Assembly: GCF_050920415.1 (NCBI RefSeq)
Contig: NZ_CP169309.1
Origin: Escherichia coli
Lineage (GTDB): Bacteria; Pseudomonadota; Gammaproteobacteria; Enterobacterales; Enterobacteriaceae
Direction: 5' to 3' (one strand)
Length of the DNA: 64,000 nt
In this document: positions 17,767-58,900 of the stretch, in pieces
Numbering within the stretch: the stretch's first letter is position 1
How the letters are laid out: each line of letters begins with the position of its first letter
Made by a program: the position numbers and the translations under genes
Notes under the pieces: model-generated
The model's database searches: none
Told to the model about the DNA's origin: nothing
The model's input: the letters and a program-made list of their open reading frames with translations, nothing else

Positions 17767-18158
17767 TGAGAGCCTTATTAGCAATATTATTGTTTCCGCT
17801 GCTGGCGCAAGCCGCCGGGGAGGGGATGTGGCAGGCGAGCAGTGTGGGCGTTACGTTGAATCACCGTGGTGAATCGATGTCGTCAGCGCCTCTTTCTTCG
17901 CGACAACCTGCATCAGGATTGATGACGCTGGTTGCGTGGCGTTATCAGCTTATCGGCCCAACTCCCGTAGGGCTGCGGGTTCGCTTGTGTTCACAATCTC
18001 GTTGTGTCGAATTAGAGGGGCAGAGCGGAACCACCGTGGCCTTTTCCGGTATACCGGCGGCAGAACCGTTGCGATTTATCTGGGAAGTGCCTGGCGGCGG
18101 GCGGTTAATTCCGCCGCTAAAAGTACAACGTAATGAAGTGATTGTGAATTATCGCTGA
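17766..18158 (+). CDS. flhE: Flagellar protein FlhE
   Basis: 130 aa with signal peptide MRALLAILLFPLLAQAAGEG. Confidence 0.93.
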   Translation: MRALLAILLFPLLAQAAGEGMWQASSVGVTLNHRGESMSSAPLSSRQPASGLMTLVAWRYQLIGPTPVGLRVRLCSQSRCVELEGQSGTTVAFSGIPAAEPLRFIWEVPGGGRLIPPLKVQRNEVIVNYR

Positions 18159-18278
18159 AGGACAAATAAAAATTACGCGCTCGCGGCATGTTTAATAACT
18201 CAGTGAAAAAGGCTCGATGTTTTATTGCAATTATTTATCAGGAATAGCTTGCAACAAAACATGCCAAAAATATGTGAA

Positions 18279-18788
18279 TTATCCTCTTGTCAAAGGGCTT
18301 GGATAAAAATCTTCAGAGTTACGGTATAACTGCAACTGGCGAGTTCGCGTATTGGTCTGTATGATCATACATGAGAGCCATTCTGATTCAGAATAAGGGT
18401 CACTTAAATCCTGAACGTCTTCATTTGAAAGGATTAATTCACATTCTTTGTCCCTAAAATCCAGCCAGGCTCGTTGTGATTTTTTAAGCAAGTTAAGTTG
18501 TTCGGTATCAGGTTTTTTGGCACCTGTGCGTGGTACTTGTTCTATATAACGATAAGCTTCACCATAAGCTTTATTTAATTGCGCATCGACGAGATTGTAT
18601 TCTTGTCGCAGGCATGATTTGATCACGTTAATGTCAGTATCATCATCTGAATTTTTTTGCCAACAATCTTTGATGGCTGAAATGTCATGGTCATTGACTA
18701 TAACCGTATCTTCTGCGTAAGCCTGGCAAGAGATAATGCCTAATGTTAATACAAGAAATTTAAACACTGCGGTATTCCTTAAATTCAA
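18279..18788 (-). CDS. yecT: Secreted DUF1311/LprI-like protein (YecT-like)
   Basis: 169 aa, signal peptide, KSQRAWLDFRDKECEL motif; position between flhE and argS as in E. coli K-12; the gene name is assigned from position and memory. Confidence 0.7.
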   Translation of the reverse strand: MNLRNTAVFKFLVLTLGIISCQAYAEDTVIVNDHDISAIKDCWQKNSDDDTDINVIKSCLRQEYNLVDAQLNKAYGEAYRYIEQVPRTGAKKPDTEQLNLLKKSQRAWLDFRDKECELILSNEDVQDLSDPYSESEWLSCMIIQTNTRTRQLQLYRNSEDFYPSPLTRG

Positions 18789-21463: not shown

Positions 21464-22219
<756 letters not shown>

Positions 22220-22264
22220 TTTTTACCGTTGCATCATGTCGCCCAATATGATGCTTGCTCGTAC

Positions 22265-22298
22265 CAGGCCCCTGCAATTTCAACAGGGGCCTTTTTTT
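22265..22298 (+). terminator. Rho-independent terminator after cutC
   Basis: AGGCCCCTG...CAGGGGCCT hairpin followed by TTTTTTTAT. Confidence 0.7.
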
Positions 22299-22604
22299 AT
22301 CCCCGAAAAGTATAAAAAACGAACGATTTCTGTGATCAGTTGAGCGCGTGACAGTGCGCATAGCGTTGTGCTAAAAATTTTTATATATTCATATTAATTA
22401 TGTAATTTAAATTACTAAAACTGACAAATATATATTCTAAATAACAACTGGGTTATTCCTTAGCAATTAATGATTACATTGTAATAAATCATATTCTTTA
22501 TCGATTATTTCAGGCAGTGTTGTGCCGAATTATGCAAGCGGTCAATTCGTTGTATATTTAATTATACAATGTTTTCGGTGTTCTGGAATTAATTAGAGGA
22601 ATCT

Positions 22605-23705
22605 ATGCGAGGGAAAAAACGCATTGGGTTATTATTTTTGCTGATAACGGTTGTGGTTGGTGGCGGCGGGTTATTACTGGCGCAAAAAGCCTTACATAAA
22701 ACGTCGGATACCGCATTTTGCCTTTCCTGCCACTCGATGAGTAAACCTTTTGAGGAATATCAGGGAACTGTCCACTTTTCTAACCAGAAAGGGATACGTG
22801 CGGAATGTGCCGATTGCCATATTCCAAAGTCAGGGGCGGATTATTTATTTGCTAAATTAAAAGCTTCTAAAGATATTTATCATGAATTTGTTAGTGGCAA
22901 AATAGACAGTGACGATAAGTTCGAAGCGCATCGTCAGGAAATGGCCGAAACAGTATGGAAAGAATTAAAAGCAACTGATTCTGCAACGTGTCGTAGTTGC
23001 CATTCTTTTGATGCCATGGATATTGCCTCGCAAAGTGAATCTGCGCAGAAAATGCATAACAAAGCGCAAAAGGACGGCGAAACCTGTATCGATTGTCATA
23101 AAGGCATTGCCCATTTTCCACCACAAATAAAAATGGATGACAACGCGGCGCATGAGCTGGAAAGTCAGGCCGCTACTTCAGTTACCAATGGCGCACATAT
23201 TTATCCTTTCAAAACTTCTCGCATAGGCGAGCTGGCTACCGTGAATCCTGGTACCGATCTCACCGTCGTTGATGCCAGTGGCAAACAGCCGATCGTTCTG
23301 TTGCAGGGTTATCAAATGCAGGGCAGTGAAAACACGCTCTACCTGGCGGCAGGTCAACGGCTGGCGCTAGCCACATTAAGTGAAGAAGGTATCAAGGCGT
23401 TAACGGTAAACGGGGAATGGCAGGCTGACGAATACGGCAATCAATGGCGTCAGGCGTCTTTACAGGGTGTGCTTACCGATCCCGCATTAGCGGACCGTAA
23501 ACCGCTATGGCAATACGCTGAAAAACTTGACGATACCTATTGCGCTGGTTGCCATGCCCCTATTGCCTCCGACCATTACACCGTCAATGCATGGCCGTCC
23601 ATTGCCAAAGGAATGGGTGCGCGAACCAGCATGAGCGAAAACGAACTGGACATTTTGACGCGGTACTTCCAGTACAACGCCAAAGATATTACCGAGAAAC
23701 AGTGA
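22605..23705 (+). CDS. torY: Membrane-anchored multiheme c-type cytochrome TorY (NapC/NirT family)
   Basis: 366 aa; multiple CxxCH haem motifs (CLSCH, CADCH, CRSCH, CIDCH, CAGCH). Confidence 0.92.
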
Positions 23706-41943: not shown

Positions 41944-42308
41944 TGCGTGATATTCAGATGGTTCTTGAGCGTTGGGGGGCGTGGGTGGCAAATAACCACG
42001 AAGATGTTACCTGGTCGTCGATTGCTGCGGGATTCAAAGGACTGATTCCGTCAAAGGTTAAGTCACGTCCGCAATGTTGTGACGATGACGCGATGATCAT
42101 TTGTGGTTGCATGGCTCGTCTGAAAAAGAACAACCGTGACTTGCATGATCTGCTCGTGGATTATTACGTTGGGGGAATGACTTTTATGGCGCTTGCAAGG
42201 AAACATGGACGTTCAGATTGCTGGGTTGGTCGTTTGTTGCAAAAAGCAGAGGGGATCGTGGCTGGTATGTTAATGATGTTGGATGTCAAACTAGAGATGG
42301 AATATTAA
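41943..42308 (+). CDS. Late-gene antiterminator Q (QuuD/phage-82-like family)
   Basis: 121 aa, [34 protein letters not shown]...[16 protein letters not shown]; resembles E. coli DLP12 QuuD as recalled. Confidence 0.75.
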
Positions 42309-42475
42309 TTTAATTCTCATAGAATTCTTTTCTTTATGAGGGGCGAATAATGCCCCTAAACTAGAATATTATAGCTGCCTCATTATCTGGGCAGCATTAG
42401 GTTGTTGAGTGGTTTTCGCTATTAAAGCAATCATTCAAAAGGTATAAAATATGAAGCTGGGTTCTATATTAACGC

Positions 42476-43663
42476 TTACTCCATGCTAAGTGAATCCTGA
42501 TAGCGCTTAAATGCCTCCGCGAAAGCTAGAGCAGCATCAGCATTTGATACCATGTATTCTTCTGTAATGCCTGTTTGGGACTGGAAATATAACTTTCCAT
42601 AAATGCAAATTGGGATTTGATAGTTATCTTTAAATCGTCGGTCTGGTGAGCCATCTTTATTTGTTTTTGCCCATGTATGCCCAGCTATGCTGGCATCACT
42701 CGGAACACCATCCTCTTCATGGAACCCTTGATGCTGCGCATTAATTTGTAATTCCCGTAAGTCAATCAGAGCAAATGCCCCATCGGGGCGAGGAATTACA
42801 GCAATACCCGGATAAAGCAATATATCGTCGCCATTGACATTTTCAAATCGCATTGCTCTTCCAGTAAAACGAATTAGATCTGTTGAAGCGAAATCAAATA
42901 CGACTGGATGACGATCAACTGCTCGTGTAGCTAACGTCCTTTCTGCAAACTGATCTATAGCTTTATCTGCGGTAATATCCCATTTTTTGATACTTGATTT
43001 TAAAATATCGAAAGCACGAATCATTGCTGCATAAGCCCGCTGTGAGGAATCGCTGGTTTCGAAATTAATGACGATTTTAGTGTTATCTTCCCAGGATACA
43101 AGACGAGATACTTCTGCTTGTATTTGTGGTAGCGTTGCTTCAAGTTCTGCAATGCGACGTTTATAAAACCATCGAAACAGGCTTGATTTACGTCGAGCCA
43201 ATTCACTCTTTTGTCTTGATTCTTCTGCAAGAGCCTCTTGTAAGTCAGATGCTATTTCCGCTCTTTGTTCTCGTGCTTTAACGATCAAGTCTCGTAAAGG
43301 TAAAAGAGATGTACTTGTCAAGGCCTCTACTGAGGCACTGGAGATTTCATTCATGCCTGTTTGTGGCATGTACATTTTTGCGTTTGATGGGGTGTTGTCT
43401 GAAATTAACTCGGGTGCATCAATATGAGATTCTACAGACGACGGATTTAGCTGAATGGTTGTGGATGGTTTGTCTTTGTATGGTAAACGAGGGGATGTAT
43501 ACGATAAACCAGATCCTGGTAACCCTAGAGTTGCTTTAATTCCTTTTTGGTTAACATTAACTGTGGCTCCGGGGACACCAAAACTTGCGCTTACCCCATG
43601 TTTACCGATGTTAAGGCGTACTCCGGGGAAAATGGTAAAAGTTTGTCTGAAGCGAAGAGACAT
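42476..43663 (-). CDS. Reverse-strand moron: 395-aa protein with DUF4236-like N-terminus, central coiled coil and unknown C-terminal domain
   Basis: N-terminus MSLRFRQTFTIFPGVRLNIGKHGVSASFGVPGATVNVNQKGIKATLGLPGSGLSYT matches the DUF4236 pattern; AGGGA RBS; oriented against late transcription; AT-rich flanks. Confidence 0.75.
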   Translation of the reverse strand: MSLRFRQTFTIFPGVRLNIGKHGVSASFGVPGATVNVNQKGIKATLGLPGSGLSYTSPRLPYKDKPSTTIQLNPSSVESHIDAPELISDNTPSNAKMYMPQTGMNEISSASVEALTSTSLLPLRDLIVKAREQRAEIASDLQEALAEESRQKSELARRKSSLFRWFYKRRIAELEATLPQIQAEVSRLVSWEDNTKIVINFETSDSSQRAYAAMIRAFDILKSSIKKWDITADKAIDQFAERTLATRAVDRHPVVFDFASTDLIRFTGRAMRFENVNGDDILLYPGIAVIPRPDGAFALIDLRELQINAQHQGFHEEDGVPSDASIAGHTWAKTNKDGSPDRRFKDNYQIPICIYGKLYFQSQTGITEEYMVSNADAALAFAEAFKRYQDSLSME

Positions 43664-53752: not shown

Positions 53753-54093
53753 GGGAAGCCACACTGTATTCCCTGCTGTCTCAGTTGGCCGGAGGACAGG
53801 TTTATCCTTATGTGGTCCCGCTGACGGAGGGAAAGCCTGCGGTATCTCCGCCGTGGCTGGTGTTTTCTGTGGTGTCTGACACGGCGTCTGATGTGCTTGA
53901 TGGTCAGGCTGAATCCAGAATTACCGTGCAGATCGATGTCTGGGCAACAGTACCTGATGACGCAGATGATATCCGTGAGCAGGCGCTTGATGCGGTAAGG
54001 CAACTTGCACCCTCCGTTATTTCTAAAACTCAGGGTTATGATCCTGATTCCCGTCTGAGCAGAGCCACGCTTGAATTTCAGGTAATAGCCTGA
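53749..54093 (+). CDS. Tail completion protein
   Basis: 114 aa; conserved position before the major tail protein. Confidence 0.5.
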   Translation: MREATLYSLLSQLAGGQVYPYVVPLTEGKPAVSPPWLVFSVVSDTASDVLDGQAESRITVQIDVWATVPDDADDIREQALDAVRQLAPSVISKTQGYDPDSRLSRATLEFQVIA

Positions 54094-54111
54094 GGTCGTT
54101 AATGATTTTAC

Positions 54112-54140
54112 CCACCCGCCGCTGGCGGGTTTTTTTATTT
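54112..54140 (+). terminator. Terminator/attenuator upstream of the major tail protein gene
   Basis: ACCCGCC-gctg-GCGGGT followed by TTTTTTTATTTT. Confidence 0.6.
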
Positions 54141-54153
54141 TCAGGAGACGAGT

Positions 54154-54858
54154 ATGTCCTCTAATTTTGAGCGTTCGCAACTGACGAAAATTATGATTTC
54201 GTCTGCACCGGTAACAGCAGAAACCCTGGATTCTGCCAGCTATCTTGGCCTGAGCTGTACAATCAAAGAGGTGCAGTTTACCGCAGGACAAAAGCAGGAT
54301 ATTGATGTCACCACGCTGTGTTCTGTTGAGCAGGAAAATATTAACGGTCTTGGTGCCGCGTCAGAGATTTCCATGTCAGGCAACTTTTACCTCAATGCTG
54401 CCCAGAACGCGTTGCGCAGTGCCTATGACAATGACACCACGTATGGCTTTAAAGTTATTTTTCCGTCAGGAAACGGATTTACCTTTATGGCAGAGGTGCG
54501 TCAGCATACCTGGTCTGCAGGAACCAATGGTGTTGTGGCTGCAACGTTTTCCCTGCGCCTGAAAGGTAAACCTGTGCTGACGACAGAGCCGCTGAAAGTG
54601 AAGGTCGATTTAAACAGCACGCTGCAGGTTTCTGCCGGAGCGAAACTCGAAATGGTGGTTGAGGCTGCCGGTGGTGTGCCGCCTTATTCTTATGTCTGGA
54701 AGAAAGGTAGTTCTCCTGTTTCCGGACAGACGGCGGCAACGTTCAGTAAGGCATTGGCAGTATCCGGTGATGCGGGCGCATATACCTGCGAGATTTCTGA
54801 TTCAGCAAGCCCGGTTAACAAAGTGACCTCCACTTCCTGCACTGTAACCGTCAGTTAA
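54154..54858 (+). CDS. Major tail protein with C-terminal Ig-like domain
   Basis: 234 aa; C-terminal Ig-like segment (VSAGAKLEMVVEAAGGVPPYSYVWKKGSSPVSGQTAATFSK). Confidence 0.75.
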   Translation: MSSNFERSQLTKIMISSAPVTAETLDSASYLGLSCTIKEVQFTAGQKQDIDVTTLCSVEQENINGLGAASEISMSGNFYLNAAQNALRSAYDNDTTYGFKVIFPSGNGFTFMAEVRQHTWSAGTNGVVAATFSLRLKGKPVLTTEPLKVKVDLNSTLQVSAGAKLEMVVEAAGGVPPYSYVWKKGSSPVSGQTAATFSKALAVSGDAGAYTCEISDSASPVNKVTSTSCTVTVS

Positions 54859-55244
54859 TGAGGATGGGTGTGATGACTAAAAATATCCGTAATCTGGCTC
54901 TGGCAACGATGTCGGGGTTTCGCCATAAAACTGTTGATGTGCCTGAATGGGAAGGGGCAACGGTTGTATTACGGGAACCTTCTGCAGAAGCCTGGTTGCG
55001 CTGGCAGGAGATCGTTAAAGCAAAAGATGATGAGACACCGTTATCCGTTGCGGAGCGCGCCCGCCGAAATCTGGAGGCAGATGTTGAACTGTTCATTGAT
55101 GTTCTGTGTGATACCGGACTGCAACCTGTATTTTCAGAGGATGATCGTGAACAGGTGATTGCCGTGTATGGCCCGGTGCATGCGCGGCTTCTTCGGCAGT
55201 CTCTGGAACTGATCAGTGATGCCGGCGAGGTTAAAAAAAAGTAG
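54858..55244 (+). CDS. Tail assembly chaperone (G-like)
   Basis: 128 aa immediately upstream of the tape measure region; ends at a slippery A-run. Confidence 0.75.
   Translation: MRMGVMTKNIRNLALATMSGFRHKTVDVPEWEGATVVLREPSAEAWLRWQEIVKAKDDETPLSVAERARRNLEADVELFIDVLCDTGLQPVFSEDDREQVIAVYGPVHARLLRQSLELISDAGEVKKK
55235..55241 (+). other. Programmed -1 ribosomal frameshift slippery site
   Basis: A AAA AAG heptamer within an 8-A run 1 codon before the G stop; downstream ORF is in the -1 frame. Confidence 0.7.
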
Positions 55245-55255
55245 CGCTTCCGGGG

Positions 55256-55546
55256 ATGCGTTTTCTGATGATGCTGGCACTCAGGATGGGGCGCACATTG
55301 TCAGAGTTACGCCGGGAAATGTCCGCATCAGAAATCATGATGTGGGCAGAATTTGACAGGTTCAGCCCGCTGGGGGACGAACGGGCTGATATCCGGGCTG
55401 CCCAGATTGTTTCAGCTGTTTACGGTGCGCAGGGTGTCAAAGTACCACTGAATGATGCGCTTCTTCAGTGGGAGCATGAATCAGAAGAAAATAAATGCGA
55501 TGATCCATTTATTGGATTAGAGGTTGCTCTAATGTCTTCACTATAA
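55256..55546 (+). CDS. T-domain of the frameshifted tail assembly chaperone (GT-like extension)
   Basis: ORF in the -1 frame relative to G, no independent RBS. Confidence 0.65.
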   Translation: MRFLMMLALRMGRTLSELRREMSASEIMMWAEFDRFSPLGDERADIRAAQIVSAVYGAQGVKVPLNDALLQWEHESEENKCDDPFIGLEVALMSSL

Positions 55547-55604
55547 GATAATTTTTTAATCGTTTTGAAATTGAATGCTTTACTCAAAGTCAGGAGGATT
55601 AATC

Positions 55605-55946
55605 ATGAGAAAATCAGTGGTGACATTAGCTTGTTTGTTTTTTATTAGTGCATGTAAGCCATCAGATAATTATGTTATTTCTTTAGGGGAAAACTTAGTT
55701 AAAGATAAGCTTATTGATCCTGATAGTGCAAAATTTAATTCTTTTTTTCATAAGTCAGGTGATTTATATGGTTATGTTTGTGGTGATGTTAATTCAAAAA
55801 ACACGTTTGGTGGATATACAGGGAAAAAGCCATATTTTGTTTATTTGGAAGTTGTGGATGGAAAAGTTAAGAGTCATGGGACTGTAACAATTGTTAATGA
55901 TCATGATCCAAGCAGTATGGAAAAATATAAGTTGTTTTGCCAATAA
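55605..55946 (+). CDS. Low-GC lipoprotein moron (113 aa)
   Basis: GGAGG RBS; signal peptide with lipobox MRKSVVTLACLFFISAC; strong AT bias relative to flanking tail genes. Confidence 0.7.
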   Translation: MRKSVVTLACLFFISACKPSDNYVISLGENLVKDKLIDPDSAKFNSFFHKSGDLYGYVCGDVNSKNTFGGYTGKKPYFVYLEVVDGKVKSHGTVTIVNDHDPSSMEKYKLFCQ

Positions 55947-55955
55947 TTATCATCT

Positions 55956-55983
55956 TAAAAAACCGCAGAAGCGGTTTTTTTAT
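55956..55983 (+). terminator. Rho-independent terminator after the lipoprotein moron
   Basis: AACCGC-agaa-GCGGTT followed by TTTTTTT. Confidence 0.7.
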
Positions 55984-55995
55984 GGGGTAAAGTAA

Positions 55996-58900
55996 ATGGC
56001 GACATTACGTGAGCTGATTATTAAAATCTCGGCAAATTCCCGGTCATTCCAGTCAGAGATCTCCCGGGCTTCGCGTATGGGGCAGGATTACTACCGTACC
56101 ATGCAGAACGGAGGCCGGCAGTCCGCTGCTGCATCCCGTGAAATGCGGCGTGCACTGGCAGAAGTGACGGATCAGATAAATACAGCTAAATCTTCGGCAC
56201 TGAATATGGCGGGGGCATTTGCCGGGGCTTTTGCTACCGGTCATCTTATTTCTCTCGCCGATGAGTGGAATTCAGTAAATGCCCGTCTGAAGCAGGCCTC
56301 ACAGTCCACTGATGATTTTCAGGTATCACAACGTGAATTAATGGCAATCAGCCAGAGAACGGGAACGGCGTTTTCTGATAACGCCAGCCTTTTTGCCCGC
56401 TCTGCAGCTTCCATGCGGGAGTATGGCTACAGTTCTGAGGAGGTACTGAAAGTCACCGAGGCTATCTCCACGGGCCTGAAATTATCCGGTGCCAGTGCAG
56501 CAGAAGCCAGTTCGGTGATCACGCAGTTCAGTCAGGCACTGGCGCAGGGAGTGCTGCGCGGTGAAGAATTTAACTCTGTGAATGAGAACGGCGATCGTGT
56601 TATTCGTGCGCTGGCTGCGGGAATGGGTGTTGCCCGTAAGGATCTGAAGGCCATGGCGGATAACGGAAAGTTGACCGCCGATAAGGTTGTTCCTGCACTG
56701 ATTAGTCAGCTTGGGGCGTTGCGTGATGAATATGCAGCAATGCCTGATACGGTTTCATCCTCTGCAACCAAAGTTGAAAACGCCTTTATGGCCTGGGTTG
56801 GTGGTGCGAACGAAGCAAGCGGAGTGACGAAGACGCTCTCCGGTGTGCTGAATGGTATTGCAGGCAATATTGACACTGTGGCAACCGCTGCCGGTGCTCT
56901 GGTTGCCGTCGGGGTAGCCCGATATTTTGGCAATATGGCATCTTCTGCTGGATCTGCAACTGCCGGATTAATTACTGCAGCCAGAAACGAAGTAGCTCTT
57001 GCGGAAGCGCAGCTCCGGGGGACGCAGATAGCAACCGCCAGGGCGCGTGCGGCGGTTTATCGTGCGCAACAGGCGGTCGCGGCTACCCGTGGTACTGAAA
57101 GACAGGCAGCCGCAGAAGCGAAACTGGCTGCTGCCCAGGCATCACTTACCCGTAATATTGCGGCCAGAACAGCAGCACAGACAACGCTGAATACTGTCAC
57201 GTCAGTGGGGAGTCGTTTATTAAGTGGTGCGCTGGGGCTGGTTGGTGGTGTGCCGGGACTCGTCATGCTGGGGGCGACGGCCTGGTACACGATGTATCAG
57301 AATCAGGAGCAGGCCAGAGAATCTGCACGCCAGTATGCCGCAACAATCGACGAAATTCGCCAGAAAACGTCGGCAATGTCGCTTCCTGAAGCGTCAGATA
57401 ATGAGGAAAAGACGCGGCAGGCACTGGAGGAACAAAATCGCCTGATTAACGAACAGGAAGGAAAAATTCGCGGACTGAAAAATCAAATTGCTGATTATCA
57501 ACGTTGGCTTGATGAAAGTTCGCAGAGTGGTTCTGGTGCTGAAATCATCCTTAAAGGGCTTGCAGAAGCAACAAATCAACTGGCAGTTGAACAGTCCCGT
57601 CTCACACAAATGCAGGGCAAAGCGCAATCCATTCAGGATGTGCTTGCCGGGCTGGAGGAGCGACGAGTGGCGTTGATCCGTCAACAGGCAGCGGAACAAA
57701 ACAAAGCGTATCAGTCCCTGTTGATCATGAATGGGAAGCATACCGAGTTTAATCGCCTTCTCGGGCTTGGTAATGAATTACTTCAGCAGCGACAGGGGCT
57801 GGTGAATGTACCGTTACGGCTACCACAGGCAACTCTGGATGATAAACAGCAGACCGCACTGAATAACAGCAAGCGCGAACTGGCTCTGTCCCGCCTTAAG
57901 GGGGAAGCGCGTGAGCGTGCCCGACTGGGCTATGCTGCGGATGATCTCGGCTTTGTGGGAGAGGCGTATCGGACAGCCAGACAGAATTATATCAATAACT
58001 CACTGGATGCCTGGCGAAATAACCAGGCAAATAAACCCAAAGCGCATAAAAAGACCGAAGCGGAAAAAACAGAAGATATTTATAAACGGCTGATTAAACA
58101 GCAAAAAGAACAGATAGCACTGGCAGGGCAGAATACTGAACTGGCTAAGATGAAATATCAGGTCAGTCAGGGCGAATTATCAACCCTGTCAGAAGCGCAG
58201 AAAAAAACGCTTTTGCAGAATGCAGCACTCATCGACCAGAAAAAGATTCGTGAGCAGCTTGCCGCGTATGAAAGCAGTCTGGCGGACAGTAATGCCAGTG
58301 CCCGGGCATCTGACGACGCGCAGTTGCTGGGATATGGTGAAGGCTCACGGATGCGTGAACGACTCCAGGAAATGTGGAGTATCCGGCATGAGTTTGAGCA
58401 GAAAAATAACGAGCTGCTGAGACAGTATCAGGCCGGAGAAATTGAAGAAGCCCTGTGGAAACAGGAGAAAGAACTGAATAAAAAATATCTGGAAGAGCGT
58501 CTCAGCGATCAGCAGGATTATTATGCAAAGGCCGATGCTTTACGTAATAACTGGAATGCCGGACTCCAGGAGGGACTGACCAACTGGGCAGACAGTGCCA
58601 CCGATTATGCTTCACAGGCGGCAGATGCTGTTGTTTCCACGATGGACGGGCTGGTATCAAATATTTCCGATGCACTGGCCGGGAATGTTGTGGAGTGGAG
58701 GAACTGGGGGAGTTCAGTTCTCCGGGAAGTTTCAAAAATTCTGATGAATGCGGCCATTGTTAACGGACTGAAGTCACTCTCCGGTGCCGGAGGGTGGCTT
58801 GGTACGGTCGGCGGATGGATTTCGGGGGCGGTGGCAAACGCAAAAGGTGGTGTTTACACATCGGCAAATCTGAGTGCTTACAGTAACACTATTGTGGATA

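Follow-up and report, generated by a model that had tools for sequence, protein, structure and literature searches.

Why should a prophage carry, in the middle of its tail operon, a small and very AT-rich gene that nearly all of its relatives do without? The question is raised by a 64,000-nucleotide stretch of Escherichia coli DNA (contig NZ_CP169309.1 of assembly GCF_050920415.1; hereafter the window), a piece of chromosome with a prophage between mlrA and btsS that combines an HK97-type head with a lambda-type tail, and in which a 113-amino-acid open reading frame (ORF) lies between the tail assembly gene T and the tape-measure gene. An earlier note on this DNA took the ORF for a separately acquired lipoprotein gene with its own ribosome-binding site and strong terminator, inserted between the G-T genes and the tape-measure gene, and likened its product to Cor and Llp, which block the phage's own receptor. 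We find that the gene is the cargo of an accessory cassette of the moron type, occupying the tail-operon slot that gene 15 takes in phage HK97, and that its product is a predicted outer-membrane lipoprotein whose role may be protective, with receptor-independent superinfection exclusion as the leading, if tentative, candidate.

The T/tape-measure junction is present in 876 of 5426 complete E. coli genomes and the lipoprotein gene in only 17, that is, the gene is absent from about 98% of the E. coli prophages with the same junction. It occurs in E. coli as two alleles, one at no less than 99% and the other at 93% identity. A spread sample of 60 junction records held 2 with the gene, 56 empty sites (with a span of about 298 nt as against 701 nt), one partial match and one site with other cargo. 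The survey of presence and absence that the earlier note had proposed thus finds few occupied sites, and alignment with the empty site reveals no cassette there. The note's impression of AT-richness is likewise borne out, the ORF having a G+C content (GC) of 0.304, and of 0.193 at third codon positions (GC3), against 0.50 for the window, about 0.52 for the flanks and 0.52 for the tape-measure gene; GC is equally low in just 0.57% of the 342-nt windows across the 64 kb. The element therefore bears two marks of a moron, a presence/absence polymorphism among close relatives and a base composition unlike that of its neighbours.

The low-GC tract extends from about 55475 to 55995 and is wider than the ORF, taking in the last 24 codons of T, where GC falls to 0.319 from 0.539 in the remainder of the gene. 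In the alignment with the empty site, similarity ends inside T and returns at the start codon of the tape-measure gene. The C-terminus of T here (...DDPFIGLEVALMSSL) is different from, yet homologous to, the other versions, and the empty site, the corresponding site of strain 33F4 and HK97 each have a version of their own, while the upstream T codons are near-identical in the empty site, 33F4 and this allele. On this sequence comparison the element is a cassette exchanged between conserved anchors that consist of the end of T ('DPF.GLE.AL') on the left and the tape-measure start on the right, and not a clean insertion, because similarity stops within T and the AT-rich tract starts there. Separate acquisition, as originally suggested, therefore stands, but a simple insertion between G-T and the tape-measure gene does not. 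The exchange also reaches into the tail assembly protein, since the last 24 residues of T, and thus of the G-T fusion, are swapped along with the cargo, with four versions seen around the conserved DPF.GLE.AL core.

The slot can hold other genes. In 33F4 (L004 1705-2046) it contains a different cargo of 113 amino acids with an N-terminal membrane segment and a zinc ribbon, whose C-terminal tail, LQEARRKAGLL, resembles the end of HK022 gp20, LEEARKKAGL. We also considered whether the low GC was inherited from a low-GC donor phage and rejected the idea, as the closest homologues compared for composition, which are 45-62% identical, also lie in flanks of about 0.51-0.56 GC; because of the composition of those flanks, AT-richness looks like a property of the gene itself. 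Homologues at 86% and 59% identity occupy the same slot.

Downstream of the ORF is a hairpin followed by a T-run, read as AAAAAACCGC-AGAA-GCGGTTTTTTT, which the consensus scanner missed, probably because much of the T-run is taken up by A/T pairing within the stem. An equivalent hairpin and T-run precede the tape-measure gene in the empty site, in the site with alternative cargo, in HK97 (where the hairpin at the slot is annotated as a putative terminator) and in nine of ten other occupied sites that were folded; the tenth, L033, has the hairpin without the T-run. The empty-site hairpin, AACCGC-TTCG-GCGGTTTTTTTT, is unchanged in 33F4, and the loop and spacer found here are specific to this allele. 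Since empty and alternative-cargo sites carry the equivalent structure, the hairpin is a resident feature of the slot and is not private to the lipoprotein gene. Of the terminator claimed in the earlier note, then, the hairpin and T-run are real, but the structure goes with the slot, if in a version carried by this allele, and with four G-C pairs in the stem it is hardly strong. Even in empty slots it stands 15-25 nt before the tape-measure start (window 55957-55995; L001 3155-3195; L004 2050-2095), and it may be a relic of earlier morons or a barrier to stray transcription of the distal tail genes in lysogens.

The ORF itself runs on the plus strand from an ATG at 55605 to a TAA at 55944-55946 (MRKSVV...KLFCQ). 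The earliest in-frame ATG, at 55575, would add ten codons and give a product of 123 amino acids (55575-55946), but it has no ribosome-binding site; the earlier note was right about a length of 113 residues and about a dedicated ribosome-binding site, and only its left end at 55575 has to be moved to 55605. The PGAP annotation agrees, with a 113-amino-acid coding sequence, WP_071605788.1 ('hypothetical protein'), in locus L003, a genome identical over this region. Comparison with the 93%-identical allele gives a ratio of non-synonymous to synonymous substitution rates (dN/dS) of 0.083, from 16.5 synonymous and 6.5 non-synonymous changes, and four further pairs give 0.05-0.16; because of these values, which lie between 0.05 and 0.16 in all five comparisons, we conclude that the ORF is a real gene under purifying selection.

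Its expression signals are less clear. A consensus promoter scan found no sigma-70 site above threshold upstream on the plus strand, and a looser scan of our own found one weak candidate. At the equivalent place the homologues L006, L014 and L016 have GTGACA-17/18-TAGCAT or TAGGAT, with nine of 12 matches, and promoter-like sites lie upstream in 55 of 78 homologous loci as against 20% of random segments, a figure inflated by AT-richness. No clear conserved promoter block emerged from the promoter alignment across homologues.

The product is predicted to be an outer-membrane preprolipoprotein. We applied a PROSITE-type regular expression that asks for K or R in residues 1-7, an uncharged stretch and a lipobox of the form [LVI][ASTVI][GAS]C with its cysteine at position 15-35; the protein has R2 and K3, the stretch TLACLFFI and the box I-S-A-C ending in Cys17, and the rule returned a positive for the control Lpp021 and a negative for HK97 gp15. 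The +2 residue is Lys, not Asp, as expected for outer-membrane sorting. In the N-terminus, MRKSVVTLACLFFISAC|KPSDNY..., the predicted signal peptide covers residues 1-16 (55605-55652) and the lipid-attachment Cys17 would be encoded at 55653-55655, leaving a mature protein of 97 amino acids and 10.8 kDa with two further cysteines, Cys59 and Cys112. The signal peptide and lipobox proposed in the earlier note are thus upheld as predictions.

An AlphaFold2 model with a mean predicted local distance difference test score (pLDDT) of 90 places a helix at residues 21-33, four antiparallel strands within 43-96 and a second helix at 102-112, and so describes a mature domain of helix plus four-stranded sheet that may be of the cystatin/NTF2-like kind, the similarity to this fold being generic. 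Cys59 and Cys112 would probably pair in a disulfide. The tether between lipid anchor and domain, K-P-S, is only 3-4 residues long, for which reason the domain should lie close up to the outer membrane on its periplasmic side. Across 102 aligned members D38, P39, S41, A42, F44, C59, G60, N63, K65, N66, G69, Y71, G73 and C112 are near-invariant, and to judge from the strand register all of these apart from C59, G60 and C112 would cluster at one pole, made of the linker from helix to strand 1 and the hairpin of strands 2 and 3, which is the likely binding surface.

The protein matches PHROG 2320 over residues 1-113 (E = 2e-33), and has the DPxSAxF and CGxVNAKNxxGGYxG motifs, the C-terminal Cys and the full-length profile match that define the family. 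PHROG 2320 has no assigned function, nor has any other PHROG matched at E ≤ 0.1. Pfam gave no match even at E ≤ 10 with the single sequence and none for the family domain in 102 aligned or 29 long members, in which the only domains recognized were fused ones (zinc-ribbon, SPOR and a weak SH3 match); NCBIfam gave no match, and sequence searches of the PDB, with the single sequence and with a profile, found nothing. Lambda Bor is thus also not among the families matched. The family is nonetheless a large one, an exhaustive search recovering 1986 clusters (50% identity) at E ≤ 0.001.

Homologues that are 42-86% identical occupy the same T/tape-measure slot in Citrobacter, in other assemblies and in metagenomic or viral contigs. 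Among 80 viral contigs the majority position is directly 5′ of the tape-measure gene, a distant group having the order major tail protein, PHROG 791, lipoprotein, tape-measure protein; the other positions are between the tape-measure gene and M, between K and I, beside the integrase gene at a prophage end, and beside a CI-like repressor gene. The lipobox is present in every one of the 93 family genes from phage or prophage loci, and each gene has a GC below that of its flanks (mean difference 0.109); among the N-termini listed for these 93 members the +2 residue is mostly K and never D. Phage Fraca has its family gene between K and I (this K/I-type allele has no match in complete E. coli genomes), LMessi also has a homologue, and in the P2-like SEN4 and SEN5 the gene lies between ogr/D and the integrase gene, SEN5_30 and ES18 gp20 matching the same family profile. 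Further homologues are found in temperate phages of Pseudomonas, Klebsiella and Acinetobacter and in Mycobacterium abscessus prophages, and to judge by names and hosts, the deposited phage records with a homologue, 38 in number, all belong to temperate phages or prophages.

Some members are differently labelled or arranged. In Mycobacterium abscessus prophages (MW584201 and others) the domain is annotated as 'membrane protein' and lies near the prophage end, and in Gordonia phage Sidious (BFVD A0A515MI67) it is annotated as 'lipoprotein'; given these occurrences, the domain crosses the divide between diderm and mycolate envelopes. Certain phages also have two different members about 0.1-0.8 kb apart, as in L067 (4749-5228 and 5998-6402), L072 and L095 (688-1119 and 1204-1542).

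The closest parallel in position is HK97 gene 15, which has the identical slot and architecture (3′ end of T, ribosome-binding site, small AT-rich ORF, hairpin and T-run, tape-measure start), is absent from close relatives and encodes a small envelope protein. It was for this slot of HK97 that the term moron was coined, and gp15 is a proven superinfection-exclusion protein of the inner membrane, expressed from the prophage, that blocks genome entry of HK97 and HK75 in a manner dependent on the incoming phage's tail (PMC3594210). The parallel is not one of descent, as gp15 scores 0.7 bits against the family profile and has no lipobox; gp15 is a YebO-like inner-membrane protein, whereas the protein here is predicted to be a lipoprotein of the outer membrane whose periplasmic domain is folded. 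HK022 has its T/tape-measure slot empty and gp20, which is gp15-like by eye, in the K/I slot, so that two unrelated families of small envelope proteins share slots. The resemblance of HK022 gp20 (L110 5749-5973) to HK97 gp15 lies in the membrane helix and the RANxQVE motif that follows it. In the K/I gap of HK97 (L100 1013-1335) the HK022 gp20 frame is interrupted by a stop codon, with an annotated terminator after it, a pattern suggesting that genes of the gp15 kind travel among the slots that the lipoprotein family uses.

A true family member is ES18 gp20 ('possible moron; function unknown'), which scores 72.8 bits and lies directly 5′ of the tape-measure gene, followed by an annotated terminator. 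It differs in its 151 amino acids, with a 50-residue insert after the lipobox and about 41% identity over the core, and in being part of another tail module with the morons gp18 and gp19 in the same gap. The kind of element described here is thus already known, and one member had been flagged before.

If the protein acts on incoming phages, the pattern of variation around its gene should hint at the target. In the K/I subgroup mature lipoproteins that are 94-100% identical accompany J C-terminal domains (last 250 residues) that are 19-68% identical, and only the immediately adjacent K and I track the lipoprotein; in L024 and L025 the lipoproteins are 100% identical, the J C-termini 30% and the tape-measure proteins 45%. 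In the E. coli carriers, J C-termini that accompany the identical allele are 86-95% alike, and the 94.7% allele is found with a J C-terminus 57-66% identical. Since the alleles match neither the receptor-binding domain nor the tape-measure protein, a conserved target is indicated. A tape-measure-specific target was entertained as a separate candidate and is weakened by the 45% identity of the tape-measure proteins of L024 and L025; in this the lipoprotein differs from gp15, which excludes an incoming phage according to that phage's tail region. It differs likewise from Ltp, the lipoprotein with which prophage TP-J34 of Streptococcus blocks the entry of DNA and whose reported target is the tape-measure protein, in that no co-variation with the tape-measure protein is seen; Ltp moreover belongs to a Gram-positive host, has an unrelated fold and is encoded between the integrase and repressor genes.

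These observations are best accommodated, with a likelihood that we would put a little short of even, by a protective envelope factor anchored in the outer membrane, the leading candidate for its action being receptor-independent superinfection exclusion through the conserved pole; by positional analogy with HK97 gp15, superinfection exclusion in a broader sense is plausible. We regard the arrival of the cassette as established: it entered by recombination between conserved anchors at the T 3′ end and the tape-measure 5′ end, and brought its own AT-rich T C-terminus, hairpin version and spacer before the tape-measure start. Late expression with the tail operon is to be expected, and translation would be from the late transcript reading through terminators. 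Q-modified RNA polymerase reads through such terminators in lambdoid late transcription, and such read-through is expected here because the prophage has a Q antiterminator gene; some additional transcription in the lysogen may start at a weak candidate promoter of the gene itself. The lipoprotein would then protect the lysogen or the infected cell at the envelope, excluding phages at a step near the outer membrane and after adsorption, and its target would be a conserved one, such as a component of the host envelope or some part of incoming tails that does not vary, and not the phage's own receptor type.

Several points weigh against this. There is no convincing promoter of the gene's own to support expression in the lysogen; PADLOC gives no match; and a search of the literature turned up no experiment on any member of the family. 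With alleles that follow neither the receptor-binding domain nor the tape-measure protein, exclusion of the phage-specific gp15, Ltp or Cor kind is not indicated, and a spread over about 2,000 clusters, Mycobacterium and Gordonia phages among them, with SPOR and zinc-ribbon fusions would fit a generic periplasmic function that need not concern phages at all. The conserved position, finally, could reflect recombination anchors alone and not function.

Such considerations lead to the first alternative, a lysogenic-conversion factor unrelated to phage entry, in which the protein would be a periplasmic binding or inhibitor module, resembling an immunity protein or an enzyme inhibitor, that counters lysozyme-type or amidase toxins, colicins or host factors, or modulates a host envelope enzyme. 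The polar conserved pole kept across very distant hosts, the independence of the alleles from receptor-binding domain and tape-measure protein, the fusion of some members to peptidoglycan-binding SPOR or SH3 domains and the occurrence of members in P2-like myoviruses and actinobacteriophages are all in keeping with this, as is the most conserved motif, which to judge from the model lies on the strand 2-3 hairpin, topologically the place of a cystatin inhibitory loop. We nevertheless think it unlikely, as the searches of Pfam, NCBIfam and the PDB give no sequence match to any family of inhibitors or immunity proteins already known, the fold resembles others in a generic way only, and the strong, repeated linkage to the tail operon goes unexplained unless the slots are merely convenient points of insertion.

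A further reading, and in our view quite an unlikely one, is that the family constitutes a new class of outer-membrane-anchored periplasmic inhibitor of phage origin, whose pole blocks a conserved enzyme acting on the envelope. In the model the pole, formed by the DPxSAxF linker and the NAKNxxGGY hairpin, would be topologically like the inhibitory wedge of cystatins, and the enzyme could be a hydrolase associated with the tail tip of incoming phages and acting on peptidoglycan or the cell wall, for which Spackle of T4 offers the analogy, or a competitor's toxin. If true, protection would be broad and would not depend on the receptor.

The mechanism favoured in the earlier note, a Cor- or Llp-type plug, would have the lipoprotein inactivate J's receptor, an outer-membrane protein, by binding to it from the periplasmic side. 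Cor (of phi80, N15 and HK022) and Llp (of T5) are likewise small phage lipoproteins, whose known or predicted place is the outer membrane's inner leaflet, and are encoded by accessory genes of siphophages; the protein here is also small, predicted to be in the outer membrane and, in the model, held by its very short tether at the periplasmic face, and the two E. coli alleles do pair with two types of J C-terminus. The Llp gene adjoins the receptor-binding gene. Two unrelated lipoproteins of mEpimmI phages, Lpp021 and Lpp010, encoded like the gene here inside the structural cluster of temperate coliphages, provide further precedents, as they exclude phages when expressed from a plasmid (PMC11893012). 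Kinship with these proteins is not apparent: with the family profile HK022 Cor reaches 7.3 bits, and BLASTP gives no match, homology to mEp021 Lpp021 was rejected at 4.2 bits (this protein of 72 residues is encoded on the opposite strand beyond J), and T5 Llp was set apart by gene position and not by sequence comparison. In HK022 cor lies downstream of J, whereas the gene here is between T and the tape-measure gene, and the present family is far more widely conserved than Cor or Llp. In about 90 loci no member adjoins the C-terminus of J or the fibre genes, close homologues precede three different types of tail-tip module, the K/I lipoproteins do not follow J, and the family extends to SEN4 and SEN5. 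P2-like phages are generally held to use lipopolysaccharide and not an outer-membrane protein as receptor. With neither homology to HK022 Cor or Lpp021, nor proximity to the receptor-binding gene, nor co-variation with J, the analogy is not sustained and we judge a receptor plug improbable.

No more credible is a helper in the lytic cycle, made from the late transcript only and without a role in the lysogen, that alters the envelope of the dying cell, for example to spare progeny phage from debris. The gene is co-oriented with the late tail genes around it, its ribosome-binding site is strong and it lacks a convincing promoter, and all the family genes (93 in phage loci) share a strand with neighbouring tail genes in tail-operon slots, but members are also found beside repressor and integrase genes at prophage ends, positions typical of genes expressed in lysogens, members came to light in temperate phages only, and about 98% of phages with the same tail manage without the gene. 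That the ORF is a decaying, functionless hitch-hiker in AT-rich junk DNA, as its rarity (17 of 5426 genomes) and lack of known function might suggest, can be dismissed as very improbable in view of the dN/dS of 0.05-0.16 in five comparisons, the conservation of intact ORF, lipobox and motifs over hundreds of loci, and the confident structure model.

The slot and the moron concept are textbook matter, and the locus in itself is unsurprising. What it draws attention to is the cargo, a family of about 2,000 clusters without functional annotation or a Pfam entry that recurs in accessory slots of temperate siphoviruses and P2-like myoviruses, and that uses some of the slots of gp15 and its kin, gp15 being proven to exclude phages. 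The pattern of co-variation yields a prediction, namely that if the lipoprotein excludes phages the effect should be independent of receptor type, and a function found for one member could extend to thousands of hypothetical proteins.

Table 1. Features at and around the lipoprotein cassette, with positions counted from the first nucleotide of the window.
Feature	Position	Strand	Details
Tail assembly chaperone G	54858-55244	+	ORF list; PGAP 'phage tail assembly chaperone' in the identical locus L003
Tail assembly protein T, downstream part of the G-T frameshift product	55256-55546	+	PGAP start 55268
AT-rich replacement of the last 24 codons of T (...WEHESEENKCDDPFIGLEVALMSSL)	55475-55546	+	Left end of the swapped cassette; GC 0.319, GC3 0.125
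Weak sigma-70-like promoter candidate, TTGCTC-17 nt-GATAAT	55524-55552	+	8 of 12 matches; looser own scan
Ribosome-binding site, AGGAGG	55592-55597	+	7 nt 5′ of the ATG at 55605; read from the sequence
Lipoprotein gene, 113 amino acids	55605-55946	+	ORF list, PGAP, PHROG 2320 match, dN/dS 0.083
Terminator-like hairpin and T-run, stem AAAAAACCGC/GCGGTTTTTT, loop AGAA	55957-55981	+	Folding free energy (dG) -11.3 kcal/mol
Tail tape-measure gene, 1066 amino acids	55996-59196	+	Right-hand anchor of the slot; ATG start here, GTG in the empty site

An A8 slippery run at 55233-55240 precedes the stop codon of G at 55242-55244, the frame of T being -1 relative to that of G, and homologous neighbours of T match Pfam Phage_tail_T; the tape-measure protein is 57% identical to that of HK97. 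A search of Rfam over positions 54000-57000 gave only an isrK match at chance level, at 54076-54135 in the gap between the tail-completion and major tail genes (18 bits against a threshold of 50, E = 0.83), which is probably fortuitous. The prophage extends from about 29450 to 64000, with its integrase gene at about 29.4-30.7 kb, and the first 29 kb of the window consist of ordinary chromosomal genes from mglA to yohO. Further 342-nt windows with a GC below 0.38 lie at 1631-2543, 18101-18783, 22151-22783, 31541-34803 and 42261-42663, of which the low-GC stretches at 31.5-34.8 kb belong to the prophage's early region and lie between its integrase gene and its repressor gene.

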